Part shown: positions 10,501 to 24,356 of the stretch, piece by piece
Layout of the letters: each line of letters starts with the position of its first letter
How positions within the stretch are numbered: the stretch's first letter is position 1
Source of the DNA: Verrucomicrobiota bacterium
GTDB lineage: Bacteria; Verrucomicrobiota; Verrucomicrobiia; Limisphaerales; UBA11358
Direction of reading: 5' to 3'
DNA: 64,000 nt
NCBI GenBank assembly: GCA_036803685.1
Contig: DAIRTX010000011.1
Coordinates: forward strand, 303 to 64,302
Notes under the pieces: model-generated
Told to the model about the DNA's origin: nothing
The model's input: only the letters and a program-made list of their open reading frames with translations
Databases searched by the model: none
Position numbers and translations under genes: made by a program

Positions 10501-11096
10501 GATCCCTTCGAGCTTTTTGTATCCACCGCAAAGTAGTAAGTCGTCCCGGCCTTGGCGTTAAAACGAAGATGGCTGGGCCCGTAGTAAGGCTGTATGTAGC
10601 TAAATACCGGCGAGCCGCCGGGACCGACAACCCAAGCGTAATCGCCGCTGCCGGTTCTATTCATAGGGCCATCTTGACCCAATTCCTGTGGAATTGAGCT
10701 GTTGATGGGGAAAAGGTCGTCATTGGCCGCCACCTGATTGAGCGTGGTCAGATTGGTCCCCGTAAAAACCCCAAGCACGGTATCGAGCATCCCGTTGGTA
10801 CCCATGCTGCCGATGGTGTCGAGTTCCACTTCCCCGTCAACCGGGGCCGTCCACTGATACCAAAGGGGCGCATTGTTAGTGAAACCGGCGATTTGGGGGG
10901 CACTAGCCTCGGAACCGCCGCTGGTATTATCATTCGTAACGGAGCCCCAGTACCCGGACAGATTTGCAGCCGTGGCGAAGGTAAACTGTGCTCTGCCAAC
11001 ATCCGCCGCGAAACAGGCCAAAATCACCAGACCCAGCTTCATCAAGACGGCACGGCTCACGAGGTTTGGCAACCTCAAGCTTGTGAATTTTCGCAT
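1512..11096 (-). CDS. Giant secreted surface protein (~3194 aa): PPC-like N-domain, Calx-beta arrays, two beta-propeller repeat blocks, P-domain-like, DUF11-like, C-terminal FYR module
   Basis: ORF track gives 1512..11318. Start moved to ATG 11096 (MRKFTSLRLPNLVSRAVLMKLGLVILACFAADVGRA, signal-peptide-like), which removes the overlap with the upstream gene ending at 11117. Six tandem Calx-beta units at ~2960..4985. DGSLDxxF propeller-type repeats at ~4990..6130 and ~7916..9251. Proprotein-convertase P-domain-like segment at ~2125..2580. Confidence 0.85.
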   Translation of the reverse strand: MRKFTSLRLPNLVSRAVLMKLGLVILACFAADVGRAQFTFATAANLSGYWGSVTNDNTSGGSEASAPQIAGFTNNAPLWYQWTAPVDGEVELDTIGSMGTNGMLDTVLGVFTGTNLTTLNQVAANDDLFPINSSIPQELGQDGPMNRTGSGDYAWVVGPGGSPVFSYIQPYYGPSHLRFNAKAGTTYYFAVDTKSSKGSILLNWAYKSSGVFRFATEDVDYWTGLPLYQAAQTESAYLVHYVPVGNAVLFTYYNYNVPGVLVTVTRVAGSSGRCMVDYTTEDGTALPALPNNDVPAVAGVDYTPVSGTLLFDDYEMSKTILIPILYPGINGSGGYTNNTVFGVELSSPGLDLHEYESGAVAPPRVDPSFSLALVKILNVSADPYGPDLIPVVDTNTTPATTNYVIGMPTNPIVSFQKCNFRVPEDVNDPANSKGYTTPVTIYVARSPTATNTSAITMHYRVNNFVNSDADPSEEWNNWFPLQPGSDYAVPTPPNFATILATNSDFDMVPADTGQGGTITFPANGVDAIYQPITFTVTNSTLTKFNRDFKIQLYQMITVGGQTVPALAGMVAETTVTILFNDQHPPAGSVDELYNPDFGDSLALPPEIVFGLPSGNGMPGVSGLVNSLLVLPNNETLIAGDFPTYNGNSINSIALVDTNGVLDSSFDPGSGPDDGPINSVALTPDNKFVVGGNFSSFNGTPCGYVARVKADGSFDMGFNASADDYVRAVAVQPDGKVLIGGEFQNVNGVARDYLARLNADGTLDTTFDPGTTLNGPVYAIALPVFSLAINNTSSGGSNEVDQAVNFGLATAGTLTVNYDMLGQPDDMRVFYGDTNVAAGTGILIYDTGPVSFSNTFVLPFGPTNGLTTNLITIVMNQGGGQFGTLWSYSATVTFGGGGGIMVGGDFDVSGQSYADIARFTANGSLDTTFSPLSGADDLVYALGWQLDGKVVVGGAFTHFNGIAYNRLARLNPDGSLDTTSFFPGLGADDTVKNITLQLDGTMYVGGQFSSFNGTHRLGFTRLYANGTVDTTFLDTAYNQFAGLKKIYSDDTPAVYASGVQSDGNVIIGGTFYQVGGGQASPSVRNYLDNHLGIPEGFGDPNLWVEPKARDGVRNRQSIARLIGGSTPGPGNISLSPPYSANRSQPSKSVYFVRTNGVLGPVSANFSVQPGTAQSGADYLYDGPPPLFWIAWRFTTSTQTRLRSDGLFGGNGSLRDVFAPLSQTDSLISSNSFVTLSISKNPSMLGDLNAQFQLANPSGADEFYLGGQNIPLGAALGVSATPFALIDDSKNSGTFGFFSSLYVATNIITSIEVVRSNGVYGPVSMRAFATNGTAIVGIDYIGLTNKLVSISANNVSNFFTVTNILNGLSSTEFVEKTVFLHLNPPLSAPVDGNATIGISNAVLRLINPNFRGYLTLSANNYIGSESAGFITFVINRVAGCAGTLTVQYATTDGPSATNRLDYFGATNILNWNSGDASSRTVSIALTNTGVVGPIKQFRVYLFNPTQNGTYQPALFYVGTPPNNSITNATLTITNDNSYGVFQFSAPSYVVREDGGYVTITVLRTGGIAAPVSVRYYTSNGPKATNGINYVGTNNVLNFAANQTAASFNVTITNIGAPEGTNAFNFNVSLTNAVNAMLGSPSNAVVNILDAETYTWPPGSLDGSFTPVMNGDVLALALQPNGQILAGGNFTNVNGAPDSGIARLNADGSLDSAGFLNNGLYSGATGGAVQAVVCQTDGRVIIGGAFNNVDGTARNRIARLMTDGSLDTSFSPPGGASAPVYALAETFVNGAREIYVGGAFNTISGGASPNLARLNGGSTNSAGGSLDSSFATGSGPNGAVYAIAVYPANSPFAGKLLVGGAFTNINGFALGHVARLNGDGSVDTNFDLNLGANDTVRAIAIQSDGRILIGGDFTNVNGTALNRIARLNSDGSLDANFTTNVGVGANGSVQAIAVQADNRIVLVGQFTRANGVTRNRITRLLPNGAVDATINFGDGANGAIDALLIQPAYQMLVIGGGFTQYDDQPHAHIARIYGGSVIGSGLLQFTSAGYQVDEKGGQALVTIRRTGGTSGPNSDGSGNISVNFATTSGGSAVAGTNYTAVATTVNFPPGEVLETVAVPVMDDGVVTPDLTVNLAISNPTPPAGMGLQPTAVLTIINDDSAVSFSAANYSVSKNILTGFAPIDVIRLGTTNGTSSVDFVTTTDGSAVPGVDFYPTNTTITFNPGDTDKQIQVPIINNSLPEGYRTVTFTLNNAVNTALVSPSNATLTIIDTVYAPGQLSFSTTNYTAYESDGNAYLTVVRTNGTSGTVTVAYNTVAGTALPGLNYVTTSGTLSFNDGDASKTFAVPLVNNNIAQGPVSLSVVLSNPSSGAVLIAPTNATLTLLHTNIGVAFVNATNYVRETNGLVPIFVQRFGGASSSVQVNYATANGTAVAGVNYTAVSGSLTFNAGETLKAISLPLLYDPQVTGNLALTMSLSSPSAGVQLASPSNTVVVLQDADAGLSFLNPASSVYKNAGSAIITVVCSNPGVEPLSVHYSTTNGTAVAGVDYTATSGTLVFTGGVGTNTFSVPILTNSLVNGNHTFTVSLSNPTPPGQLVSPSNQVVTIIDSNSGLSFSSPTYTVLKTGVAATITVLRIENTNTVSSVNFATANGTAVAGLDYIATNGTCVFTNGETSQTFSVTVINNTVVQPDKTVLVQLSNPVNGILIAPYAATLTIHDTSGSSVVPAGSTLISESGPTNGIIDPGETVALLFAFRDAGGNDVTNLYATLLNINGVTNASTPQRYGYLIVGGPSASQSFSFKAVGTNGQQIVATFKLQDGTNNIGTNSFTYTLGTSINTFANTNLIIINDHASASPYPSTINVSGVGGLLIKATVTFANLTHSWPADIDALLESPSQQSALLMAHAGGGYAVNGVTLTFDDATNYPFLTNAAQIVSGTYRPTAFILSPAFSPPAPAAPYATNLSGLYAGNPNGAWSLFVIDDAAINAGAISNGWSLTLITSSPVGSAADSAISMTASPNPVGVSNNLTFVIAVTNYGPSASTGVTVTNPLPSGAQFVSATNSQGTVSTNGSLLAWNVGPLAANAGATLTLVLRPTAAGSVTNSAIVSSVTSDPNSDDNAASVTVTVGVSSPPQFGSLVISNGTFRLTITNPTNPPASIIIQASTNLFNWVNIFTSTPPFTFTDPSSTNYPSRFYRAVLGP

Positions 11097-11116
11097 AATC
11101 TTTTTTGCCACGCTGC

Positions 11117-14095
11117 TTACTGTTTTGTATCCACCCGAACCCGATAAAACCGCATAGGGTCGGCGACTGGATTGGTCATCATCACTGGCACCGGCGGCCA
11201 AGCCGACGAAGCCGGCGTGATGAAATTCGTAAGGGTCAGCCAGTTTGGCATCATTAAATTGGTCTTGTAAAAGACGTAGTTGGTGACGTAACCGGTCGCG
11301 AGCGTGGCCTTCTGCCACTTGAGCACCGCCGCCGGCACGGGCGTGTTGGCCAACGATATTGTGAAAATCAGATTGGTGGGGTTGATGGTGCCGAACGGCG
11401 TCAGGTCATAAAGATTGGGAATCCCGTCCCCGTCGGAATCAATATTTATGCTTTGGCGCAGCGCGGCATTGAAGGGATAAGTCGTGCCATCGGGATAAAC
11501 TATATTGGTAGAACTGAAATAACCCGCGTAAGCAGGCACCCAGCGCAGCCGGTTGCCGTTCAGATGGTTCAACTTCTCAGCCACGGACACGCCGTTGGCC
11601 ATTGCCTGGGCGTAATAAATCACCATGTTGGGACCAATGCCGAGTGCATTGACCAGGGTGCCATCGAAATTGGTGGCGGAATCGAGGAGTTCGAGTTCAT
11701 CCACATACAACGCGTTGCTGGTAGTGGCGCCGTCGAATCGGAACAAGCCTGCCCCCGGCGCGTCCAAAATGAGCCGGCCAACCGCTGCATTGTCCGTATA
11801 ACCGGTCGCCGTAGCACCAAAGTCGTGGCCGGCCCAAACATGGTCAACCTCGGCCTGACCCAAAGCCGTGTCATAAATCGTAGTGCCCAACAATTCTCCC
11901 GTCGCCGGCTTGATCCACAAATTGAACCCGTTTGAACAAGAGAAAGTGTTGCCAGCGCCAAAGCCACCATCGGACAAATTGGCAACCACCGTGAAATCCA
12001 GCGCGTCATTGGCGGAAAGTGTGGATTGACTGATTTGCAGGGTGTTGGCCTGGAACTGAATGTCAGCCCCGGACACAATTGTGGCACCCGTTAACCGGCC
12101 GGTCTGGGTGGTTAAACTGAAATTCCCATATTGCGTGAAGTCGGTTCCATTATTAATTTGGAAGTCAACGCTGTTGATCGTCTGGTCGCCGGCACTAATT
12201 GTCCCGTTATTGACGAACTCCAGGTAGTTCGTTGGTCCATCATCTCCAAAATGCGCGGAGTTGGGAATGGAGAGGAAACCATTATTGGTGAAATATCGCA
12301 GGGTGGGCGCATTGGCATAGGTCCAATTCTGCAGCACCCCGGAAAGGCTGACATTCCCTTGCAGGGTGGCGATCCGGCCATCGAGGAGAAATGAGTGGAC
12401 AATATTCATAGAATCGCTGACGAGGATGTTGGTGCTGTGCAAGATTAAATCCTGAACCAGCACCGGCACCCGCGAAGAAAGCTGGCCGGCATCCACCAGC
12501 AGGACATAAAGGTTGTATTGAACGACATTGGTCAACGGTGACTGGAAGGAACTTGTCCACCCGTTGGTGGTCGCGTAATTGTTGAGGGTTACCACCACCT
12601 CAGAATTGCTCCAAACACCACTCCAGGCGGAAACCGTCCCCTGCAACCGGTTAACATACGGGACCGCAAGATTGGTAATGTTCAAAAAGCCGTTGGTTGA
12701 GCCGAGGTTGTAACTGAGATTCTGACTATCCATGACCGCGTTGGTGCTGGAAATGAGATTGGTGGCCTGAATCACAATCTCGACTTCAGCGCGTATGCGT
12801 GTCTGGAAGAGATTCAGATTGCCCGCATAAATGCTAACTTTGCCCGGGCGATTTGTGAGTGAGCCAACGGACGTCGCAGCAATATTGTCCACCCGCGCGG
12901 AATAGCCGGCATACCTGGCGGTTACAACAACATTGGTAAAGTCGGCAAGGAATAAAAAGTCGGCGGCGGGAACCCCCACCCCGGCAAAACCGTTGGCAAA
13001 TGCGGGCGGTTCCGTCCGGGACAGGCTATAATTACCCGGTCGAAATGTTGCACCCGAACATTGGGCATAAGGGTTCAAGATGAGGCTGGTATCAAACCCT
13101 CCATTGGTGGTGGAGGCCAAAGTATCCACGAGGTAAATGTCACTCGTCTCCGGCAAAAGCGTGATCGTATTTGTGGAGATTGTCTCCAGGCGCACGGCAA
13201 CGGTTTGGAAAAGATTTGTAGGGTTTGAATTGGGCAGGAACCTGACCTGACCGGTAATGTTGGGGTCGTTAGTGTTAATGTTAATGAAAACAGCCTGTCG
13301 GAATATATTTGTGGTGAAAGTTATGGGCGCGTTGGGCAAACCACTTGAGTTGGTAGTGAACAACATCAAACCACCTCCCAAAGTCTCGACCGAATCAGAC
13401 ACGACGGGTTTATTTGTCGTGAATGTAACAAAAACATTTGACACCCCACAGGGCTCGCTTACCAGGAAGACTGGCGGGAAATTTGTTACCCCATCCCATA
13501 TCTTCGCGCTGTTTAAATCCATGTTGGTCTGCCCCCAATACAGGTCATAGATGGCCGTATCGGGCGTGAAATTTGTGCCACTATTGCCATTGTTAATCCC
13601 CACAATCGGCATAATCCCCACCGAGCTGCGATGAAGGTCCACGGATGTGCCGGTCAATTTGATCTCACCGTTGGCGCTGGCAAGGAGTGTTCCCTTGTTG
13701 ACGATGTTGGTGGCTGACACCCACAAATAATTTGTCCCGTTGACCAATGCGCTCGCGCTGTTATTGACGAAATTTGCCGACCAACTGCGCATTCCGGCAA
13801 ACGTAGGGCCCCAATCAAACTCCCAGCCGACCGATCCATTCATGGTTCCAATGTTGGTATAGTTGAGGGTATGCGCCGTTGTGAATCGCAGTGTGGTAAA
13901 AATGTTCCAGATCCCCGCGTTGTAAAAGTTGGTGGCGTCAACCTGGGGCGGAGTTCCTGTAACCGTGGCGGGGCTGGTATATAAGGCGTCTGTCGCTTGC
14001 ACCGCAACCGGGAATCCGGCCAGAACCAATAAAAGCAAAATTGATAATAATCCTTTATCAAGCTGCCTGGTTAATTTGGAAAAAATTGGTCTCAT
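11117..14095 (-). CDS. Large secreted protein (~992 aa), family not recognised, C-terminal FYR module
   Basis: ORF track gives 11117..14236. Start moved to ATG 14095 (MRPIFSKLTRQ...LLLLVLAGFPVAVQA signal peptide). N/T/S-rich beta-rich composition, DSDGDGIPNLYD calcium-binding-type motif, ends ...PMRFYRVRVDTKQ. Confidence 0.7.
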   Translation of the reverse strand: MRPIFSKLTRQLDKGLLSILLLLVLAGFPVAVQATDALYTSPATVTGTPPQVDATNFYNAGIWNIFTTLRFTTAHTLNYTNIGTMNGSVGWEFDWGPTFAGMRSWSANFVNNSASALVNGTNYLWVSATNIVNKGTLLASANGEIKLTGTSVDLHRSSVGIMPIVGINNGNSGTNFTPDTAIYDLYWGQTNMDLNSAKIWDGVTNFPPVFLVSEPCGVSNVFVTFTTNKPVVSDSVETLGGGLMLFTTNSSGLPNAPITFTTNIFRQAVFININTNDPNITGQVRFLPNSNPTNLFQTVAVRLETISTNTITLLPETSDIYLVDTLASTTNGGFDTSLILNPYAQCSGATFRPGNYSLSRTEPPAFANGFAGVGVPAADFLFLADFTNVVVTARYAGYSARVDNIAATSVGSLTNRPGKVSIYAGNLNLFQTRIRAEVEIVIQATNLISSTNAVMDSQNLSYNLGSTNGFLNITNLAVPYVNRLQGTVSAWSGVWSNSEVVVTLNNYATTNGWTSSFQSPLTNVVQYNLYVLLVDAGQLSSRVPVLVQDLILHSTNILVSDSMNIVHSFLLDGRIATLQGNVSLSGVLQNWTYANAPTLRYFTNNGFLSIPNSAHFGDDGPTNYLEFVNNGTISAGDQTINSVDFQINNGTDFTQYGNFSLTTQTGRLTGATIVSGADIQFQANTLQISQSTLSANDALDFTVVANLSDGGFGAGNTFSCSNGFNLWIKPATGELLGTTIYDTALGQAEVDHVWAGHDFGATATGYTDNAAVGRLILDAPGAGLFRFDGATTSNALYVDELELLDSATNFDGTLVNALGIGPNMVIYYAQAMANGVSVAEKLNHLNGNRLRWVPAYAGYFSSTNIVYPDGTTYPFNAALRQSINIDSDGDGIPNLYDLTPFGTINPTNLIFTISLANTPVPAAVLKWQKATLATGYVTNYVFYKTNLMMPNWLTLTNFITPASSAWPPVPVMMTNPVADPMRFYRVRVDTKQ

Positions 14096-14218
14096 TTTAC
14101 AGGCACTGATTAGTTGATGGTAATCGAAAAACTCCACCGCACATCCGGAAACGTCAACGACGGATAAGCCGCCCCGGTGGTGCCGTCCGGCAGACTGCTC
14201 AGCGTGGTCCCGGTGAGC

Positions 14219-14260
14219 GCATTGGTCAGGGTGCATTGGTCAGGGTGCATTAGTCAGGGT
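14219..14260. repeat. 3 x 14-bp tandem repeat (GCATTGGTCAGGGT, third copy GCATTAGTCAGGGT)
   Basis: Read directly from the sequence. Overlaps the stop codon (14254..14256) of the upstream gene. Confidence 0.95.
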
Positions 14261-16281
14261 GTGTGACCCAGAACCTGATTCTCCAGATTCTGAATGCTGG
14301 TGCCGTTGGGATATACAACCGGATCATTGGTCGTGCCATCGAACGATCCCCAGATGAAGTATCGGCCGTAATTAGGCCCGTTCAGAAAACTGGTGCCGAC
14401 ATTTATATATACGGGGCCAACTTTGTCGAAGGAAATTTTGGTGAAAGGGTTGATGGTGCCGGGACCTGCCAAACCCGGATAAGCGTTGGCCTGATTAAAA
14501 GTGATGTTGCGAGCGTAAATAGAAACCCCAGGGATGGCGGCAGGCCCGGCGGCTAAATCCGCCGCGGCGAAAGTAAAGTCCGGGGTGGTCACCACCCGCA
14601 GGAAGGTCTGACTCTGCGCCTTGCTGCCGGAGATAACGACCATCGTGTAGATGTTGGTGATGGGCTGGAAGAACTGGCCGAGGAGCGAATCAAAGGGGGC
14701 GCTGACAAACTGGATTTTCTCGATGCCCGGATGCAAACCCGGGCCGTTGGTCGCACCGCCCGTAACCGTGCTTGAGCAGATGGGCGACTGCACGACATAG
14801 ACATGGCTGGTGGAATAGGTCACAAGGCTTTGGGAAGTGAAAAAGCCCGCCGAGTTGCTGGCGGCGAAAAGAAAGTTGGTCGTCGCCGTCACATTGGTCG
14901 CCAGCGTGCTCAGAAAGTGCGGCGGGCCGCAGAGATAATTGGTGTTAATGTAATATTCCCCCGACGGCACATTGTTGAGGATGACGGTCTTGGTCGTGGT
15001 ATTGGTGCCCAGCGTGCCATACGGCGCGCCAATAACCGGTTCGCCCACCGTGACCGTCACCAGCGAGACACTGGTATTGGGGTGGAAGCCGTTGGGGATG
15101 ATGACGAGGTTGGCAAAAGTGTCCGAGTAAATTGCCGGGAATGAGTAGGTATAGCCATTGGTCTTGACCACCAGCGTCGGCGTGCCATACGGCGCGCCAA
15201 TCAGGTTGGTGTAATAGGCAACCACAATCGGCGTGGCAATGTTCGTGAAATAATATGAAGAATTAACAATGACCAGCCCCGGAAACAAATTGGACAGGGT
15301 GACCGGATTATTGGTTCGAGCGGACCACCAAAACGCATTATAGTTGGAAGTGTAAAGCAGGGATGGCGGGCCTAAGTTGGTCACGCCAATAGTGGTGGAG
15401 CCGGTCAAGATGCTGCCCAATGCCGGGGATTCAAAATTGATATTGTTCGAGCTTAAAAGATACCTCAATCCACCCGCATCATCACGGGTCAGATCCGTAT
15501 AAAAACCGCCATAGTGTCGATACAGGCCCATACCGGCCACGGCCGTAAAAATATCGTCCAAAGGTTGCTTGGGAATGGGAACTGTAACCGCCAGAGGGTC
15601 GGGGCCGGTGCAAATTTCGCTAATGACATAAGTGTAAAGCGTGTTATTAACGTAAGCCGAATATTGAATTACATTCAATGGAGTGGGTGTCGGATCAAAA
15701 TTTCTCATCACCACCAGGTAATCCATGACTGGACAAGTGGTGTTGGGGGGTGGCCAACGATCGTGCAGCGTCCAAATATAGCGCTCCGGATCCGCCAAAC
15801 CCAATTGTTCGCACATCGCTTGCATCGTCACGGATTTCAAATCCAACAACCCCAAAGCTTGTGCCTGGTAATTGATCGCCTGTGAGTTCAATGGAAATTC
15901 CGAAAGTGAAGGGGAGTAACCGTCCAAACCTTTGGTCATGCCGGTTGGGTTATTAGTAAAGACGTTGTTCAGGATGGCGAAGGCACCATCCACGGCCGCC
16001 ACGCCGTTCGACCCAAAATAATCGAGAAAAGTCGCATCGCAGGCGTAATACATCACCGGCGTGTTGCGGCGGTATTCCTCGCCCAGATTTTTAGGCGCCA
16101 CGAGGTCACCGCCCAGACCATAACCAATCACCGGCACCTGCCAGGCATCACCTTGACCAGTTAGACCTCCGGACGGATTAGGGTTATTTCCAATCGGTCC
16201 TCCGAGGGAATACGCCCACGCTGCCTGCTGGCCGGACGCCAGCAACGCAATCCACAGAAATTTTTTAATCATTTGCCGCAT
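14254..16281 (-). CDS. Secreted protein (~675 aa), family not recognised
   Basis: ORF track gives 14254..16353. Start moved to ATG 16281 (alternative 16272), giving MRQMIKKFLWIALLASGQQAAWA, a signal peptide. The upstream gene stops at 16289. Confidence 0.65.
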   Translation of the reverse strand: MRQMIKKFLWIALLASGQQAAWAYSLGGPIGNNPNPSGGLTGQGDAWQVPVIGYGLGGDLVAPKNLGEEYRRNTPVMYYACDATFLDYFGSNGVAAVDGAFAILNNVFTNNPTGMTKGLDGYSPSLSEFPLNSQAINYQAQALGLLDLKSVTMQAMCEQLGLADPERYIWTLHDRWPPPNTTCPVMDYLVVMRNFDPTPTPLNVIQYSAYVNNTLYTYVISEICTGPDPLAVTVPIPKQPLDDIFTAVAGMGLYRHYGGFYTDLTRDDAGGLRYLLSSNNINFESPALGSILTGSTTIGVTNLGPPSLLYTSNYNAFWWSARTNNPVTLSNLFPGLVIVNSSYYFTNIATPIVVAYYTNLIGAPYGTPTLVVKTNGYTYSFPAIYSDTFANLVIIPNGFHPNTSVSLVTVTVGEPVIGAPYGTLGTNTTTKTVILNNVPSGEYYINTNYLCGPPHFLSTLATNVTATTNFLFAASNSAGFFTSQSLVTYSTSHVYVVQSPICSSTVTGGATNGPGLHPGIEKIQFVSAPFDSLLGQFFQPITNIYTMVVISGSKAQSQTFLRVVTTPDFTFAAADLAAGPAAIPGVSIYARNITFNQANAYPGLAGPGTINPFTKISFDKVGPVYINVGTSFLNGPNYGRYFIWGSFDGTTNDPVVYPNGTSIQNLENQVLGHTP

Positions 16282-16288
16282 ACACATT

Positions 16289-18439
16289 TCATTGGCGCAG
16301 GAGCAGGATGCGATAATAACCCGCCGCACCGCCCCCAACAAAAATCGAATCACCAGTGCCCGCCGCGAAACGCGGCGATCCCAGATTGCTCCACGAGGTG
16401 AAATTCGTCGTCATCTGCACCTGATAGGTCAGTCCCGGCTGGGTGTTCCAACTGAGGAACAGTCCTTGCGGCGTTTGGCTGAATTGCCGCCCTTGTGGCA
16501 TTTGTGCCGTTTTACTGATTTGCACGCGCAACACGCTGGCCGAATTCGTCGGATTCGTGCCCGCCAGAAATTCCTGGTAATTGTTCATGCCGTCACCGTC
16601 ACTGTCGGCGGTGGTTGAAGGCCACGATGATTGAGGGCCAAAATACATCGTCATCCATTCAACGGGAATGGCATTCGCCGGGGTTCCCCAATAGTAACCG
16701 AGCCAGGTTGGCCCGCTGGCCGAAGGCGAAATCGGCGAGCGCCGTCCGTCCGTCGTCACATAATCCAATTGGAACGAATGGGTGCTGTTGGCTGTCAGGC
16801 CATTCGCTGCCGTCATCGTCCAAGTGGTGTTCGTCGTCAAGGCCATCGGCGTTCCCGCGCCATCCACATAAACTTCGTAAGTGGAAACGGAAATTCCGAG
16901 CAGCGACGGCCACGAAATCTGCAACTGCGGCTGATAAACGCCATTGCTCACCATAAACGGCGCATATATAAACGGAGCGCTCATCGGCTGCAAAATCGCC
17001 GCTACGTTGGCATAACGTTGCGCGAACAAATCGAAGCTGTAGGGACTGCCGGTGTAGCTGGTCCAAATCACAACGAATTGACCGACGCCATCCGACGCCA
17101 CGGCCGGCTGCATTTGCTGGCTGATGGTCGTGGTGTTCACGAGAAATTCGCCGCCCACCCGTGAGCCTCCCTCATGGAGGAACTGTCCAAACACGCCTTC
17201 CCGCGAACCGTCCTGCGCCAAGCTCGTCCAGACGATTAAATAATCCACGCCAATCGCGCTGATCCGCGGCACGTATTCGTCACCATAAAGACGTGAATTC
17301 ACCAGCACGGTCGTGCCACCGATGCCCGCGCTGGAAAATGTCCGGGCATAAACATCCCAACTGTTGGTTGGGTTGGCCATGTCGTACGCTCCCCAAACCA
17401 CCATAAAACTGCCATCCGATGCAACGGCCACACCTGGGTTTGCGCACGGATTGAAATCCGTGTTCACAAGAAATTCATTGTTTTGGGCAACGCCGTTGCT
17501 CGCGTAAAGCCGCGCGTAAATGTCCACGCTCGGAGCGAGCGCGGCCAACTGGCTGGAGCTTTGCAGGGTTGCCGGTGCGCTGCCAACCACTCGTTGCTGT
17601 TCCGACACCCAGGCCACGACAAACCCGCCGTTTTTCAAAGCCGCGATGGCCGGCGTGCGCTGGTTGTAGGAAATAAATTGATTGATCAGAAAGTTGGCGC
17701 CGACTTTCACGCCGGTCGGCGAAAGAATCTGGCCATAAACATCCTGCAAACTGTTTGAGCCGGCTTGATTGAAACTCGCCCAAACGACCACGACGTTGCT
17801 GTTGTTGAGCACGGCAACGGCGGGGTTGATCTGAAAATGCAGGGTGTTTACAGCCGTGTTCGTTGTGACAATCTTGGTTGTCTTTGTGGTGTAACCGGTT
17901 ATTCTCGTGTGGCTGCTATTCCAATTCGTTATGACAGTTGAGGTTACGTTGGTGGTATAACCCAACACGTTTGTGATTAGCTGTGAATTGACGGGCATGT
18001 CGTTAGTCGTAAGCCAGGTATTGGTGGGGGTAAGAAACCGCGCGTAGATCTGCTCTTGACTCGGCTTGCCGCCCTGCCACACGAAAACCGCGCCGCCGTT
18101 TTTCAGCAATGCCACGCGAGGATTCTCCTGATCATTTGTCCCCTGGACATTCACCCGGAAGGAACTGCCCGAACCGGAAAGCGTGCCGTTCAACTGCATC
18201 GCGCTCACGCCCCAGCCGCTGCCATCGGTGATGTTATCCTGCCAGACGGCGAAGCCGCCGCTGGAGTTCAGCGCCGCATCGGGGAAAACCTGATCACCCG
18301 GCAACGAACCAACCATCGCGTAATTCGTTCCGAACGTCGTGTAATAATTGGTCTGGGCAAAAACGGCGGCGGGAATTCCAAGGAACAATCCCCAGCAAAA
18401 ACAAATGGCGGCCCGGCGGACGAACAACGAGAACGACAT
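16289..18439 (-). CDS. Secreted repeat protein (~716 aa): propeller-like repeats, FN3-like, TSP3-like Ca motif, C-terminal FYR-type module
   Basis: ORF track gives 16289..18574. Start moved to ATG 18439 (MSFSLFVRRAAICFCWGLFLGIPAAVFA). About 7 repeats of the pattern F.VN....Q..P.VA...GGFVVVW......D(I/V)YA(R/Q). Also DSDGDGMNNYQEF. Ends ...AAGYYRILLLRQ. Confidence 0.7.
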   Translation of the reverse strand: MSFSLFVRRAAICFCWGLFLGIPAAVFAQTNYYTTFGTNYAMVGSLPGDQVFPDAALNSSGGFAVWQDNITDGSGWGVSAMQLNGTLSGSGSSFRVNVQGTNDQENPRVALLKNGGAVFVWQGGKPSQEQIYARFLTPTNTWLTTNDMPVNSQLITNVLGYTTNVTSTVITNWNSSHTRITGYTTKTTKIVTTNTAVNTLHFQINPAVAVLNNSNVVVVWASFNQAGSNSLQDVYGQILSPTGVKVGANFLINQFISYNQRTPAIAALKNGGFVVAWVSEQQRVVGSAPATLQSSSQLAALAPSVDIYARLYASNGVAQNNEFLVNTDFNPCANPGVAVASDGSFMVVWGAYDMANPTNSWDVYARTFSSAGIGGTTVLVNSRLYGDEYVPRISAIGVDYLIVWTSLAQDGSREGVFGQFLHEGGSRVGGEFLVNTTTISQQMQPAVASDGVGQFVVIWTSYTGSPYSFDLFAQRYANVAAILQPMSAPFIYAPFMVSNGVYQPQLQISWPSLLGISVSTYEVYVDGAGTPMALTTNTTWTMTAANGLTANSTHSFQLDYVTTDGRRSPISPSASGPTWLGYYWGTPANAIPVEWMTMYFGPQSSWPSTTADSDGDGMNNYQEFLAGTNPTNSASVLRVQISKTAQMPQGRQFSQTPQGLFLSWNTQPGLTYQVQMTTNFTSWSNLGSPRFAAGTGDSIFVGGGAAGYYRILLLRQ

Positions 18440-18577
18440 AAAAGATTTACAACAGTGTAAACGCAACCGGGCGTTTTGTCCAAAAATTCTTTTGCCAAAA
18501 CGCGCGCGCCGCCGCTGAAAAAACAGCCGCGCTCCGCGTATGACCGCCAACAAACTTTTGCGTTCCAAATTCATTTT

Positions 18578-19578: not shown

Positions 19579-20232
19579 TCACCGCGCCGGCGCGGGTGCC
19601 GTTCCGGCGTTCCCCAGCCGCACCTCCACTCCCGGTGGTTGCGGTGGAATGGTGCTTTGTAAAAACGGCAGTTCATCGTCCGAATGCACCCGGTTGCCAG
19701 CCGGATCAACAATGGTGGCGGTCACAAAAATCATCAGGTTTTTTTTCACGGAAGTTTTTGTCTGGCTTTGAAAGAGCCGCCCCACCAGCGGCAGGTCACC
19801 GAGCATCGGGATCTTGTCCTTTGTGCTCTGGACTGAAGAAGAAATCAGTCCGCCGAGGACAACGGTCTGGTTATCCCAGATGTTGACGGTGCTGACGACC
19901 TGGCGCACGGTAAAGCGCGGCAGAATGGTGGGAATCATCACGACGTTGGCGACGTTGACGCCGGGAATCGTCGGGGACGGGTCATAGCCGGAGAATTGGG
20001 TCAGCGACGGGATCAAGGTGAGGTTGATGGTATAACCGTCGGACAAAACGACCGGTATCACGTCCAGCACCGGGCCGATTTCCACCTGTTGCTGATTGGG
20101 GGTGATGGCGGATGTTTGCACGGCTTGTTGAACCACTTGGGCCTGCCCTGGAGGGATAACGCCCAACAGCGCAATGGCCACGCACAAAACAAAACCTTTC
20201 ACAACTATTTTTGATTTTCGACTGGTCTTCAT
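19579..20232 (-). CDS. Secretin, C-terminal part of the secretin beta-barrel domain, with its own signal peptide
   Basis: 217 aa. N-terminus MKTSRKSKIVVKGFVLCVAIALLGVIPPGQAQ, then GPVLDVIPVVLSDGYTINLTLIPSL...NIWDNQTVVLGGLISSS...KIPMLGDLPLVGRLF...LMIFVTATIV, the classic GspD/PilQ C-terminal motifs. Confidence 0.8.
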   Translation of the reverse strand: MKTSRKSKIVVKGFVLCVAIALLGVIPPGQAQVVQQAVQTSAITPNQQQVEIGPVLDVIPVVLSDGYTINLTLIPSLTQFSGYDPSPTIPGVNVANVVMIPTILPRFTVRQVVSTVNIWDNQTVVLGGLISSSVQSTKDKIPMLGDLPLVGRLFQSQTKTSVKKNLMIFVTATIVDPAGNRVHSDDELPFLQSTIPPQPPGVEVRLGNAGTAPAPAR

Positions 20233-20256
20233 GGTGCTGGTTGGTATCTGAAGTTA

Positions 20257-22449
20257 TTACTGAGTGGTCGTACCGCCCGTGGTGATCGTTCCACCTGCGT
20301 TGCCTTGCTGGAAGTTAAAGCTCGAGATGATGGTTATGATTTCCGTCGCGCGCATCTGGGTTTGACGACCGCTGATCGTGGTCACTTCCGGTTCGGCAAG
20401 AGTCTCAGTCCCGGTGCGCTGCTCCAAGGCGTGAATCACGACCCGGAAATTGGGATCGGTCAAAATACCCGTAACGGTGCCAAGGGTCGGAATGGCCGAG
20501 TTGGCATTTACCAGATTGCCGATCACCTGATCCGACGCTTGACCCGGAAGGAGGCTGGCCGCCGTGTTGCCGGGAAACGCGCCCAAGGGATTGGCCGCCG
20601 AAACCGGCACATTGAGCGATGGCGAACTGCCGCCACTCCCAACAATGGATTTTCCCATATTGAATTGTCCCAAATACCAGTCAAAGCCCAATGCCTTGTT
20701 GTCATTCTGCCCGACTTCGATGAATCGGGCTTTGATATGCACCTGCGGCGGCGTCATGTTCAACACCTGAATGGCTTTTTCGACGGTGTCCAAATCCTGC
20801 GATGTCGCGTGGACGAACAACACACCCAACCGGTCATTAAAGAAAACGCTCTTCGGTGGATCCAGATTCAGACCCAGCGTCGTGAAGAAACCTTTGGCTG
20901 CAAGGCTGACGTTCACTGTTGCATTAGTTGTTGTCACATACGACAATCCACCGCCACCCTGACCGCCACCCTGACCGCCACCGCCACCGCCACCGCCGCC
21001 GCCGCCGCCCTGGCCGCTGCTGCCCGAGGAACGAGCTGATGAGGCTCCCGGGAATGCATTGACGATTGCTACCGCGGCGCTGCTGGAGTTTCCGCTTTGA
21101 CCGCCACCGCCGCCGCCGCTGCTGCCGCCGCTGCTGCCGCCGCCGCCGCTGCTGCTGGAACTGGAAGAACCAAAACTTTGCGCACCCACGCTTTCCAGGC
21201 CTTGATAGAAGGTGTTGGGATCCACTTTGAATGTGCGCGTTTCCAATGACATCGCCTCCGGACCCCTGGCTGAGAAAACGATGGCGTAATCCTCAACGGA
21301 GTATTTGATGGGATGATCAGCCACCAATACAATGGCATCCAGCACATCCGCCAACCGCACATCGCTTAATGTCAATTTGACATTGATGGAACTGGCATCC
21401 ACGGATTCACCACCAACGGTTGGAGCCGTCACGGGCAATCCTGTGGCTGGGTCAATGGTCATTGTGCCGCCAGCGGGCGTGATGGCCGCGGAGGCTGCCG
21501 CGGCATTTGGATTAAAAAGAAAGTTAATTCCCTTTTTGTCCGGGTCGCGCAACTTGGCTTGTTCGCTCAGATTGCGAAGAACTTCACTCAACGGCAGACC
21601 TTCGGGCCAGGAAACCTTGTCGATCGGGATGTGAATAAGTTTGCTGTAAATGACCTCGCGACCGTCACCGGTGCGGACGAGATTGGTCAAGGCATACGGA
21701 TTGGGCACGGGCAGCAACCCGCGGTTTACCGGCTTCACCCAGGCATTCTCCACCTGTACCATGCGGTCCTGCGTGTCAATCGTGTGCGTGCGCGTTTCAC
21801 GGTCGTAACGGGCCTGCTTGACCAAATTCATGTAGTAGAAGACACCCGCGTTGTCCGGATCGAGCCTGTTGGCCTCTTTCAATTTGACTTCGGCCTCATC
21901 GAACTTGCCCATTTCGTAAAGCAATTTGCCGTCCCGCACCAACGTGCCCGCTTCCGTCTTTTCATTGGCGATATAAGGAATTTGTTGCAGCGTCGCATCG
22001 TCGGGCATTTTGCCGCGCATGGCAGCAAGCGATCGGTCGTTGTTCTTCTTGAAGGCAAGCGCGGCGGCATTTTGCGGGTCCACTTTCAACACGCGGCTGA
22101 CCTGGGTGTCGGCTTCGTGCAAATCGCCCTGACTTTGTGCCTGACGGGCGAGGGTAAGCCGGGTTGAAACAAGGCCGGAAATGGTTTGCGCCTTTTCTTC
22201 GGGGATGCCGGAACCGATTTGCTCGACCAGCGTATGGGCGTCTTCGTAAAGTTTGGCGGCACCGGGCAAATCTCCGCGCGCGGCGGTGTTTTTGGCATCC
22301 AGGAGTTTTTGGCGCAGGATGATGGTATTGGCCTGACGAAGCACGGCTTCATTGACAGCCGCGTCCGTGGGACTGGTTTGCGCCGGTAACATGGCGGCGG
22401 CGGCCAGCAACAAAATAAAACCGAGTGAGAGAGGTGCTGCTTTTGTCAT
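20257..22449 (-). CDS. Secretin, N-terminal part (signal peptide, TPR-like region, Gly/Ser tract, secretin-N-like domains, first strands of the secretin domain)
   Basis: 730 aa. Start MTKAAPLSLGFILLLAAAAMLPAQT. Motifs IKARFIEVGQNDNKALGFDWYLG and VIHALEQRTGTETLAEPEVTTISGRQTQMRATE. Ends in tandem TAA TAA. Confidence 0.8.
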   Translation of the reverse strand: MTKAAPLSLGFILLLAAAAMLPAQTSPTDAAVNEAVLRQANTIILRQKLLDAKNTAARGDLPGAAKLYEDAHTLVEQIGSGIPEEKAQTISGLVSTRLTLARQAQSQGDLHEADTQVSRVLKVDPQNAAALAFKKNNDRSLAAMRGKMPDDATLQQIPYIANEKTEAGTLVRDGKLLYEMGKFDEAEVKLKEANRLDPDNAGVFYYMNLVKQARYDRETRTHTIDTQDRMVQVENAWVKPVNRGLLPVPNPYALTNLVRTGDGREVIYSKLIHIPIDKVSWPEGLPLSEVLRNLSEQAKLRDPDKKGINFLFNPNAAAASAAITPAGGTMTIDPATGLPVTAPTVGGESVDASSINVKLTLSDVRLADVLDAIVLVADHPIKYSVEDYAIVFSARGPEAMSLETRTFKVDPNTFYQGLESVGAQSFGSSSSSSSGGGGSSGGSSGGGGGGQSGNSSSAAVAIVNAFPGASSARSSGSSGQGGGGGGGGGGGGQGGGQGGGGLSYVTTTNATVNVSLAAKGFFTTLGLNLDPPKSVFFNDRLGVLFVHATSQDLDTVEKAIQVLNMTPPQVHIKARFIEVGQNDNKALGFDWYLGQFNMGKSIVGSGGSSPSLNVPVSAANPLGAFPGNTAASLLPGQASDQVIGNLVNANSAIPTLGTVTGILTDPNFRVVIHALEQRTGTETLAEPEVTTISGRQTQMRATEIITIISSFNFQQGNAGGTITTGGTTTQ

Positions 22450-22528: not shown

Positions 22529-23335
22529 TCAAGGACTCGGGCTGTATGGCAATGTCGTTTTTTTCTGATTTGATCTGGCCAACAATATCATTGTGTCTGG
22601 GTTGATGGCAACGATTATATTGTCATCGCCGGCAAACTTTAAAATCGCGCCGATGCGCTGCCCCTGCCATTTTTTCCCTTCGAGATCATATTTCAAGTCC
22701 ACAGAGTAACCGTCTGTGCGGCGAAAAGGTTTGTCTTTGGACAGCGTCGCCCTCTCGCCGGTGTCCGTCAGTTGCAAAATCAATTTCACCGGCGCCGGAT
22801 TGTCCGGCACACTGTTGTCCGGCACACTGTTCGTGATAATGGTGAAGGTTTCATTCTTTTCCCCGACCGAAGCATAATGCTGCCGTTTGCCGCGCTGCGC
22901 AGGCAAAACCGCCGCCTGGCGCTCCATGCTGATTACATAGCGCGCGCCAAATTCATTGGTCTCTATCGAATCCAGCGTGAGGATCAAACAAAGCGGCGTG
23001 ATTTTTGTGACGACCGCCGCCGTGGGGCCGGCCTGACTGCCTTTGATCAGCATCCCATCGGCTTTTCTTTGCCATGGCACTGGATTGAACAGTTTGTTCG
23101 TCGTCGAAAAATCCAGTTTGTAAGGCGATTGCAGCCGCGCCGATACATTCGTTTCCCGCGTCAAATCCAGCGCCGGCAGCGGCGCGACCTTCACGTGAAT
23201 GATTCCTTCTTTCATTCGCCGCTGCGTGTCCTGATCACTGATGATCAAGAACGGCAGGAACACCAGCGCGCCCACCAAACCCAGCAACACAACGCTGAGC
23301 AGGATTTTCTCGTAATGTTTTTTGACGAAATCCAT
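22529..23335 (-). CDS. Membrane-anchored hypothetical protein in the PilP / Amuc_1099 position
   Basis: 268 aa with N-terminal TM helix ILLSVVLLGLVGALVFLPFLII. Start is 4 nt after the upstream stop. Contains an in-frame NSVPD NSVPD duplication. No family recognised. Confidence 0.55.
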   Translation of the reverse strand: MDFVKKHYEKILLSVVLLGLVGALVFLPFLIISDQDTQRRMKEGIIHVKVAPLPALDLTRETNVSARLQSPYKLDFSTTNKLFNPVPWQRKADGMLIKGSQAGPTAAVVTKITPLCLILTLDSIETNEFGARYVISMERQAAVLPAQRGKRQHYASVGEKNETFTIITNSVPDNSVPDNPAPVKLILQLTDTGERATLSKDKPFRRTDGYSVDLKYDLEGKKWQGQRIGAILKFAGDDNIIVAINPDTMILLARSNQKKTTLPYSPSP

Positions 23336-23339
23336 GGGC

Positions 23340-24356
23340 TTACTTTTTTGGCAACAATTTCACGACCTCGACCACCAAGGTGACGCGCAACAGTTGCTCG
23401 TTCAACACCGTCTGCAATCCGCCCCTGCCCGGCACTCTCGTCGGCAGGGTTGGCGGCGGGGCTGCCGGCGGGGCTGTCGGCGGGATTGCCGGCCGGGCTC
23501 GCAGCCCGGGTGGCAGATACGGCTGCGCCAGCATCGGCTCCGCCGGCATCGGCTCCGCCAGCATCGGCACCGCCGGCATCAGCGCCGCTGTCTCCGGCGC
23601 CGTCGCCGCAGCGGCGCCGGCCGGTTGAACGTTGATGCTCTTGACGATGAAACCATGAGGCGACGACGCCAAGCCGGCGAGCACTTCACCCACCTCCGGA
23701 CTGAACGAACGGAACGTAATTTGGTAAGGCGTCAGAACGGCCAGATTGTTGGTCACGGAATGATCGTCGAAATAATCGGCCTGCGGGCCGTTTGCGTCGT
23801 CATCCGAAACGCGGACGCGCTGAATCCCGTCCAGCGAATTGACCCGCGCGGCAAAAAGAATTTCTGAAATGGTTTTCACTTCACCAAACTGCGCGGCCAG
23901 TGCTCCCAGACTGCCGGAAAATTTGACCAACGAGCGTTGCGCTTCAAAGGAGAAGTTATACTTGGGCGGCAGGGTCACACTGGCGGCATCGGCTTCATGT
24001 TGCAGCTGGTCAATGGTCCGGCGGAGCGCCGCGGCGAACGCTTCGCTCGAAACGGCATTGTTGCCCGTGTTGGGAATCGGTGCAATCGGCTGAAAATAAC
24101 CCGCCGCCTGTCGAATCCAGTCTCGAATCTGGCGTTCCTGTTCGCGCGCGGCGGCGATGTTGTCCACCTTCTCGTTGCCCGGCGAGGGCTTTTGACCGGT
24201 CAAATTCCGCAACGTGCCATAAATCTCGTTCAACTTGTCAAACGCCGCCGAGTTATGACTCCACCCTTTGTAATTATAAAACCCAGCCGCCCCCAGCAGT
24301 CCCAAGGCCAGTATGCCGCCAATCACAAAAAACAAGTTTCGCTTGATCCAGGCCAT
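23340..24356 (-). CDS. Amuc_1100-family-like pilus-associated protein
   Basis: 338 aa. N-terminal TM (LFFVIGGILALGLLGAAGF), globular middle, Pro/Ala-rich tract, terminal beta segment (LRVTLVVEVVKL). Architecture and gene neighbourhood resemble Amuc_1100 of Akkermansia as I recall it. Confidence 0.55.
   Translation of the reverse strand: MAWIKRNLFFVIGGILALGLLGAAGFYNYKGWSHNSAAFDKLNEIYGTLRNLTGQKPSPGNEKVDNIAAAREQERQIRDWIRQAAGYFQPIAPIPNTGNNAVSSEAFAAALRRTIDQLQHEADAASVTLPPKYNFSFEAQRSLVKFSGSLGALAAQFGEVKTISEILFAARVNSLDGIQRVRVSDDDANGPQADYFDDHSVTNNLAVLTPYQITFRSFSPEVGEVLAGLASSPHGFIVKSINVQPAGAAAATAPETAALMPAVPMLAEPMPAEPMLAQPYLPPGLRARPAIPPTAPPAAPPPTLPTRVPGRGGLQTVLNEQLLRVTLVVEVVKLLPKK

Follow-up and report, generated by a model that had tools for sequence, protein, structure and literature searches.

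The window analyzed here is a stretch of 64,000 nucleotides (nt) from a Verrucomicrobiota bacterium of the Limisphaerales (UBA11358), a soil/peat genome, taken from contig DAIRTX010000011.1 of assembly GCA_036803685.1 (positions 303 to 64,302), and it carries on its minus strand two neighboring open reading frames (ORFs), here termed ORF1 (730 amino acids, aa) and ORF2 (217 aa), which each encode a part of one secretin. Secretins are giant outer-membrane pores that serve type II and type III secretion, type IV pili, and the export of filamentous phage. They are sealed by Gate 1, and mutations in the hinges of this gate make cells leaky. The division between the two ORFs falls within the barrel-forming domain itself, at a position that corresponds in our models and alignments to the tip of Gate 1, and the same division recurs in a large number of related genomes. 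The features of the locus are collected in Table 1.

At the junction, the minus strand reads ...ACC ACT CAG TAA TAA cttcagataccaaccagcacc ATG AAG ACC AGT CGA AAA...: ORF1 (C-terminus ...GGTTTQ) is closed by the first of two consecutive TAA codons, and an in-frame ATG at 20232, located 21 nt past this tandem stop, opens ORF2, the translation of which starts MKTSRKSKIVVKGFVLCVAIALLGVIPPGQAQ. The tandem stop, the spacing, and the in-frame restart had been reported in an earlier reading of this DNA (the original prediction, made from the letters and translations), and all of them are present in the minus-strand sequence, as are the motifs that it quoted from ORF2, including LMIFVTATIV. Two of its details require correction: ORF1 does not end at ...EIITI, as it continues for 23 further, Thr/Gly-rich residues, ISSFNFQQGNAGGTITTGGTTTQ; and the shared frame of the two ORFs, while true of this genome, does not extend to a general rule, with offsets of 0, 1, or 2 found among relatives. 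By a heuristic reading of motifs, both ORFs begin with a positively charged n-region, a hydrophobic core, and a small-x-Ala cleavage site. The fresh signal-peptide-like N-terminus that had been ascribed to ORF2 is therefore read by motif as a Sec-type design, one that is repeated in all 44 of the split relatives analyzed; its predicted mature N-terminus is Gln32, and the mature chain would start QVVQQAVQTSAITPNQQQVEIGPVLDV. A scan of the spacer did not find promoter-like or terminator-like sites, RNA structure at the junction is neither significant nor conserved (z = -0.05), and a search of the rest of the window (blastn, tblastn) for a donor of the stop, spacer, and signal-peptide module returned nothing above chance.

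The Pfam secretin model (PF00263, 169 positions) is partitioned between the two ORFs. ORF2 alone matches positions 33-169 at 95.1 bits, above the Pfam gathering cut-off of 27.5. The whole of ORF1 gives no reportable match to this model, returning TPR repeats and a weak Secretin_N match instead; when the last 78 residues of ORF1 are searched alone, they match positions 1-44 weakly (E 0.018). Neither polypeptide alone thus carries the whole secretin domain, and the joining of ORF1 residues 517-730 to mature ORF2 yields positions 1-169 in one stretch, at 100 bits. A divided model was what the original prediction had proposed to look for, and its placement of the cut inside the secretin C-domain is borne out, although "inside the first strands" proves too imprecise: by structural criteria, ORF1 is predicted to carry an N3-like domain, the first long barrel strand, the lip region, the return strand, and the first arm of Gate 1. 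The Secretin_N match (PF03958) has an E-value of 0.06-0.08 and 14 bits, below the cut-off of 28.2, and the predicted secondary structure of this region is compatible with an N3-type domain. Further upstream in ORF1, Pfam matches to TPR_11, TPR_2, and TPR_14 fall within residues 94-206. Between this N-terminal module and the N3-like domain, residues ∼425-500 (20950..21180) form a very long Ser/Gly low-complexity linker, SSSSSSSGGGGSSGGSSGGGGGGQ...GGGGGGGGGGGGQGGGQGGGG.

For both ORFs, the best NCBIfam model is Amuc_1098_fam (NF042912, 805 positions), which is likewise divided, with ORF1 occupying positions 19-383 and onward and ORF2 positions 642-804. The scores are 205.6 bits for ORF1, 124.9 for ORF2, and 326.5 for the joined sequence, short of the equivalog cut-off of 750. 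Since both ORFs match this family and are preceded by Amuc_1101-family, Amuc_1100-family, and 268-aa genes, the locus is, as judged from family matches and gene order, the counterpart of the Amuc_1098-1101 pilus-like cluster of Akkermansia.

To place the cut on the secretin fold, we compared the split forms with intact relatives and with known structures. In intact proteins, a Gly/Thr/Asn-rich loop of ∼25-35 residues lies between the flanks ...T-I-V-T-G-F-x-F and ...I-T-P-x-x-Q-x-x-E-x-G-P-V-L-D-V. The split forms retain these same two flanks and a similar total loop length, and what they have in addition is the stop, the spacer, the ATG, and the signal peptide; in the intact relatives aligned at this loop, a hydrophobic signal-peptide segment is not present. 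The C-terminal 214 aa of ORF1 align to residues 295-461 of GspD (5zdh). An AlphaFold2 model of ORF1(517-730) artificially joined to ORF2(33-217), built with an alignment of 118 intact-type homologs, has a mean predicted local distance difference test score (pLDDT) of 82.3 and a predicted template modeling score of 0.68; single-sequence modeling of the joined halves was uninformative (pLDDT 31). In the model, an N3-like alpha/beta unit is followed by a long strand (residues 53-77), the lip region, a long return strand (151-169), and a hairpin with one arm from ORF1 (187-198) and the other from ORF2 (224-244). The loop that connects these arms (199-223) has the lowest confidence in the model, with a minimum at residues 211-214, which is the exact junction. 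The best 40 Foldseek matches of this model in the PDB are all secretins, with GspD 5zdh first (E 5e-19) and then PilQ, XcpQ, InvG, BfpB, RcpA, and pIV, at a probability of 1.00 and over 331-387 of 399 columns (350-375 for the closest). As modeled, the joined halves encode one complete secretin protomer, with an N3-type domain, double-walled barrel strands, and the Gate 1/Gate 2 fold.

A finer placement is obtained from the phage M13 secretin pIV. When ORF2 or its profile was searched against the PDB with HMMER, the alignments were confined to the last 70-90 residues, from which the break cannot be placed, whereas an hhalign profile alignment to pIV (probability 98%) pairs Thr702 of ORF1 with precursor Gly288 (mature Gly267) and Gly53 of ORF2 with precursor Gly318 (mature Gly297). 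The break falls opposite mature residues ∼282-285, inside the segment 275-289. In the cryo-electron microscopy structure of pIV, Gly267 and Gly297 are the conserved hinge residues that bound Gate 1, and 275-289 is an unresolved segment at the pore's very center (PMC8563730). Profile alignment and model together place the cut in the chain at the tip of Gate 1, between the two hinge positions; the inner and outer sheets of each protomer would therefore mix strands of both chains. The first hinge Gly, which is conserved in pIV, GspD, and others, is Thr or Val throughout the Amuc_1098-like family, in split and intact forms alike.

The split is maintained among relatives to a degree that far exceeds chance. 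A search with ORF2 recovered proteins of 202-222 aa at 84-100% identity, which make up more than 120 clusters and come from JGI, ENA, NCBI, and Logan assemblies, including many metagenomes. Some of these clusters sit on contigs of several hundred kilobases, and in two of them the neighborhood consists of a PilM-like gene, an Amuc_1100 gene, a 267-aa gene, a 717-729-aa gene, a 24-nt gap, and a 217-218-aa secretin. Representatives at 50% identity include further, more distant short forms (55-60% identity) with an initial Met, basic residues, a hydrophobic core, and AxA|Q; most of the other representatives at this level are single chains of 800-1000 aa, which align only from ORF2 residue ∼35-50 on. 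Some of the nearest 50%-identity representatives of ORF2 (P0121, P0130, and P0132) have an unusual architecture: they are proteins of 1300-1900 aa in which a BlaR1-type M56 peptidase/sensor domain at the N-terminus is fused to a complete secretin domain at the C-terminus, and one of them has CarboxypepD_reg repeats in between.

We then scanned the locus in one genome per species, which gave 80 loci, nearly all from metagenome-assembled genomes (MAGs) of Verrucomicrobiota (Limisphaerales, "subdivision 3", Pedosphaera, and others). Approximately 50 of the 80 are split and ∼30 are intact, the latter encoding proteins of ∼900-1000 aa. The order Amuc_1100-like gene, 268-aa gene, secretin, and downstream 5'-3' exonuclease is common to split and intact loci, and because these flanking genes are the same, the split and intact secretin genes are taken to be orthologs rather than paralogs. 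As far as these genomes indicate, the split secretin is widespread in uncultured Verrucomicrobiota of soil, peat, and freshwater. A number of records (L029, L039, L052, L059, L067-L069, L071, L084, L085, and others) carry this Verrucomicrobial locus under titles such as Akkermansia muciniphila, Klebsiella, Bifidobacteriaceae, Sulfopaludibacter, or Limnocylindrales; these titles look mislabeled or mis-binned and are unfit for taxonomy.

Junctions and leaders were analyzed in detail for 44 split loci, at all of which the two secretin ORFs are adjacent. The last residue of ORF1 follows a Thr/Gly-rich tail and is Pro (27 loci), Gln (16), or Asn (1), and its stop codon is TAA in 37, TGA in four, and TAG in three. 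The gap between the cistrons ranges from 14 to 63 nt, mostly 18-26 nt, and the offset of the ATG from the stop, modulo 3, is 0 in 20 loci, 1 in six, and 2 in 18. Every one of the 44 ORF2s has an n-region of net positive charge and a hydrophobic core with a Kyte-Doolittle mean of at least 1.9 in its best 10-residue window. A small-x-Ala|Gln cleavage motif (Gly|Gln in one) was called by regular expression in 40 ORF2s and by visual inspection in the remaining four. Of the 40 sites called by regex, 33 place the predicted mature N-terminal Gln 21 residues ahead of an invariant Gly-Pro, and most of the other seven calls look like mis-picked cleavage sites.

At the DNA level, close relatives conserve the first TAA and the spacer and not the second TAA, which is TCA in L001 and L003; further in-frame stops occur in the spacers of relatives. 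Pairwise ratios of nonsynonymous to synonymous substitution (dN/dS) are 0.2-0.6 for ORF1, ORF2, and the signal-peptide codons, where the value for the C-terminal part of ORF1 takes in Gly/Ser low-complexity stretches that align unreliably. Across the split clade, the consensus of this C-terminal part is as conserved as that of ORF2. These patterns point to purifying selection on both cistrons. Synonymous divergence looks lower in ORF2 than in the C-terminal part of ORF1, an apparent difference that, given the same alignment problem, is not interpretable. When L001, L003, and L004 are compared with the window (20190..20256, minus strand), the tail of ORF1 is variable, and the spacer and the first ∼40 nt of ORF2 (ATACCAACCAGCACC ATG AAG ACC AGT CGA AAA TCA AAA ATA G) hardly vary in their nucleotides; translation initiation or coupling may impose a constraint here. 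In L017 and L072, which are MAGs derived from long (nanopore) reads, the secretin genes contain frameshifts, and in L017 ORF1 runs through the spacer into ORF2. As the signal-peptide module is still there in both, these frameshifts are most likely homopolymer indel errors.

The distribution of split and intact forms is patchy. In a neighbor-joining tree computed from conserved regions of the two halves (72 loci, 320 columns, 200 bootstraps), which has weak internal support, a large group with 100% support contains 35 split loci, including the window, and seven intact loci are nested within this group. Another six split loci form a second group, monophyletic at 99%, which is placed on the opposite side among intact forms, a single split locus (L082) is placed elsewhere, and the monophyly of all split forms receives 0% support. 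The tree of the neighboring exonuclease gene has the same patchy pattern. Because split forms are scattered in both gene trees, the split is not monophyletic, and its state has changed (by gain or loss) several times: either the gene was split independently at one site, or a single old split was later undone by precise re-fusions. That the predicted mature N-terminus takes an identical position in all groups is compatible with a common origin or with a strong structural constraint.

Our preferred explanation, to which we assign a probability of about three in four, is that this is a genuine two-gene pilus secretin of the Verrucomicrobial Amuc_1098/PilQ type, in which a gene of ∼900 aa has been interrupted in the Gate 1 loop tip and two chains form the protomer. 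The original prediction had likewise argued for a real two-gene secretin over a nonsense error and had suggested a comparison of related loci. The outcome strongly supports it, in that the split is kept in ∼50 species-level genomes, close relatives retain a stop where an error would have left sense codons, both cistrons are under purifying selection, the relative frames vary, and the ORF2s begin with predicted signal peptides.

In the mechanism that we propose, a module consisting of a stop, a short spacer, an ATG, and a Sec signal peptide interrupted an ancestral gene of ∼900 aa where it encodes the low-complexity Gate 1 loop tip. The two cistrons would be co-transcribed and both products would be exported by Sec, after which signal peptidase I would cut ORF2 behind the small-x-Ala motif to leave Gln32 at the N-terminus, ∼21 residues ahead of the second gate hinge. 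In the periplasm or the outer membrane, a normal protomer would form as the C-terminal half-protomer of ORF1 (contributing the N3-like domain, the first barrel strand, the lip, the return strand, and the first Gate 1 arm) interdigitates with mature ORF2 (contributing the second Gate 1 arm and all inner and outer strands that remain). The secretin is thus probably heteromeric, as judged from the shared domain and the modeled fold, and ∼12-15 such heterodimers may build a double-walled barrel, the central gate of which would be formed of free Thr/Gly-rich C-termini and Gln-started N-termini rather than closed loops. A break would be tolerable at this site because the tip is variable, disordered, located at the pore center, and accessible from the periplasm, and because both new termini can be delivered there. 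A stronger version, in which the secretin is obligately heteromeric with ∼12-15 copies of each chain and a free-tail gate, and in which the split has been gained or lost several times since it changes gating or assembly (e.g., through a gate that opens more easily, or control by supply of the small chain), is doubtful on present evidence.

Several considerations count against the two-gene, two-chain explanation. The system is known here from genes alone, and all of the genomes are MAGs, with no cultured organism among them. The AlphaFold2 model, as a joined chain computed from intact homologs, speaks to compatibility with the fold rather than to assembly from two chains, and dN/dS values of 0.2-0.6 indicate only moderate constraint. 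The mechanics of the gate in the Amuc_1098-like family may also differ from those of model secretins regardless of the split, given the Thr or Val at the first hinge.

Among the alternatives, a sequencing or assembly artifact, or a recent pseudogene in which a nonsense mutation happens to precede a chance ATG and hydrophobic stretch, is very improbable. The window taken alone does have an in-frame double stop, as a nonsense lesion would produce, and some nanopore-derived MAGs (L017, L072) do contain frameshifts in this gene; however, ∼50 species-level genomes and more than 120 clusters share this layout, and they stem from independent samples and platforms and from assemblies (JGI, ENA, NCBI, Logan) that do not go back to one erroneous reference, both ORFs remain open down to ∼50% identity with dN/dS below 1, the relative frames differ by species, and the canonical signal-peptide design is found in 44 of 44 ORF2s. 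Recoding is just as hard to credit. Readthrough or ribosomal frameshifting that joins the ORFs into one chain, with the hydrophobic segment retained in the loop, would suit two ORFs that are in frame and only 24 nt apart, as they are in this genome, but the stop is doubled here, the offset is +1 or +2 in 24 of the 44 relatives, and other spacers contain extra in-frame stops. We consider readthrough and frameshifting to be effectively excluded because of these variable frames and extra stops and the lack of conserved RNA structure at the junction. Moreover, a hydrophobic segment of ∼20 residues with AxA|Q would be incompatible with a gate loop at the pore center, and the intact relatives do not have this segment.

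A different possibility is that both products are real and act separately, with ORF1 as a periplasmic or TPR scaffold or a pilotin-like factor, and ORF2 alone as a reduced outer-membrane assembly or a non-functional protein. Rhizobial RhcC1 (N-domains only) and RhcC2 (complete barrel domain) set a precedent for separable and differently regulated modules, and the co-assembly proposed here is derived from sequences and models. Even so, we regard this as improbable: the cut lies inside the barrel, leaving ORF2 without the first long outer strand, the lip, and one inner strand, all of which ORF1 keeps under selection, and ORF1's C-terminal portion is as conserved as the always adjacent ORF2. The alternative of a functional but selectively neutral split, in which a tolerated loop break is fixed by drift, repeatedly gained or lost, and without effect on gating, is a serious possibility, if somewhat short of an even chance. 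It is favored by the patchiness in two independent gene trees (intact loci nested among split ones, and a second split group among intact ones), by the approximately equal total loop length of split and intact forms, and by the disorder of this site in solved secretins. The conservation in all groups of the Gln 21 residues before the hinge, and of a Pro/Gln C-terminus on ORF1, suggests in contrast some constraint on the new ends. This alternative is about what the split means and not about whether it is real, and it overlaps with the preferred explanation of a two-gene secretin.

The closest characterized relative is Amuc_1098/PilQ of Akkermansia muciniphila, a single 907-residue polypeptide that is a highly abundant outer-membrane protein (PMC4960237). 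It shares with the window locus the N-terminal TPR module, the C-terminal secretin domain, and the neighborhood (Amuc_1101 PilM-like and Amuc_1100-like genes), and differs in being one chain rather than two of 730 and 217 aa; with 326.5 bits for the joined sequence against a cut-off of 750, the window secretin is a distant relative and not an equivalog. The joined halves also share their predicted protomer fold with GspD, PilQ, InvG, RcpA, and pIV, along with the second Gate 1 hinge Gly and conserved C-terminal motifs. In those proteins, Gate 1 is a continuous hairpin loop, whereas here the chain ends and restarts at its tip, and the first hinge Gly of pIV and GspD is replaced by Thr.

Split secretin genes as such are already known: in the Rhc type III systems of rhizobia and Pseudomonas syringae, the secretin is encoded by rhcC1 and rhcC2, sometimes with a third piece, and the functional significance of this split is unknown (PMC3574062, PMC3973906). 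As in the present case, the separate genes are conserved across a clade, but the cut differs. In pNGR234a, our domain search finds that NolW/RhcC1 (234 aa) has only a T3S N0 and one Secretin_N domain, and that RhcC2 (475 aa) contains N-terminal domains of its own together with all of PF00263 (1-169). The Rhc division thus falls between the N-domains and an intact barrel domain, whereas the division in the window falls inside PF00263, at the gate. The Rhc genes are also kilobases apart (∼12 kb between nolW and rhcC2 in pNGR234a), differently regulated, and part of a type III system, whereas the cistrons in the window are 24 nt apart and belong to an Amuc_1098/PilQ-type pilus cluster. The Rhc case was the only one found in a literature search for a secretin split within its domain, in a library that is partial and so offers no proof of absence. 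The view of the original prediction that a two-chain secretin was not known to have been described consequently has to be narrowed: it does not hold for split secretin genes in general, and it stands, as far as the searchable literature goes, for a cut inside the barrel.

A natural and widespread cut at the Gate 1 tip would imply that the gate needs no covalent continuity, and that the protomer of a double-walled barrel can be completed from two chains which, on our interpretation, are separately exported and co-assemble. Such loci would offer a natural experiment on the folding, assembly, and gating of secretins, and a ready design for split-secretin engineering. Because the gene has switched repeatedly between split and intact states at a single precise site, it would likewise make the fission and fusion of a gene for a membrane beta-barrel tractable to study. 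At present, genes of the 217-aa type carry the annotation "GspD" or "hypothetical", and contig gene tables list no precomputed Pfam secretin match for the 730-aa partner, so that surveys of genomes will miscount this secretin or overlook it.

Table 1. Coordinates and supporting evidence for features of the split-secretin locus and its upstream genes, numbered from the first letter of the window.
Feature	Position	Strand	Basis
ORF1, N-terminal chain of the split secretin: signal peptide, TPR module, Gly/Ser-rich linker, N3-like domain, first barrel part, first Gate 1 arm	20257..22449	-	Translation, Pfam, NCBIfam, GspD alignment, AlphaFold2
Probable Sec signal peptide of ORF1, MTKAAPLSLGFILLLAAAAMLPA|Q	22381..22449	-	Inferred by eye from the translation
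TPR repeats of ORF1, residues ∼94-206 (TPR_14 at 97-132, TPR_11 at 174-206)	21832..22170	-	Pfam
ORF1 residues 517-730: N3-like domain and first protomer half, which ends in the first arm of the Gate 1 hairpin	20260..20901	-	GspD alignment, AlphaFold2, Pfam, hhalign
Thr702 of ORF1, aligned with pIV hinge Gly267	20344..20346	-	hhalign
Thr/Gly-rich C-terminal tail of ORF1, QQGNAGGTITTGGTTTQ, predicted free end in the Gate 1 tip	20260..20310	-	Junctions of relatives; lowest pLDDT at model residues 211-214
Tandem TAA TAA, the first being the ORF1 stop	20254..20259	-	Minus-strand sequence
Intercistronic spacer, 24 nt (second TAA plus 21 nt)	20233..20256	-	Sequence
ORF2, C-terminal chain: signal peptide, second Gate 1 arm, remaining barrel strands, C-terminal tail	19579..20232	-	Pfam, NCBIfam, AlphaFold2
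Predicted Sec-type signal peptide of ORF2, residues 1-31, MKTSRKSKIVVKGFVLCVAIALLGVIPPGQA|Q	20140..20232	-	Positive n-region, hydrophobic core, small-x-Ala|Gln
Gly53-Pro54 of ORF2; Gly53 is invariant in the family and aligned with pIV Gate 1 hinge Gly297	20074..20079	-	Alignments, hhalign
268-aa gene upstream of the secretin, conserved; syntenic at split and intact loci	22529..23335	-	No family match
Amuc_1100-family pilus-like protein gene	23340..24356	-	NF038287, E 8e-20, below family cut-off
Amuc_1101-family PilM-like gene, 598 aa	24358..26154	-	NF045709, E 3e-145; TIGR01175 pilM, 133.2 bits

Beyond the exonuclease gene, in the window as well as in relatives, lie two large conserved ORFs of 699 aa (14254..16353, minus strand) and 761 aa (16289..18574, minus strand). 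Their only family signals are a faint Amuc_1099-like stretch and a TSP3 repeat in the 761-aa protein, and both ORFs may be components of the same surface or pilus system. Farther downstream of the pilus-like cluster are a 1039-aa ORF without a family match (11117..14236, minus strand) and, adjoining it, a 3268-aa ORF (1512..11318, minus strand) that contains nine Calx-beta and ten DUF5122 beta-propeller repeats and a DUF11 domain.

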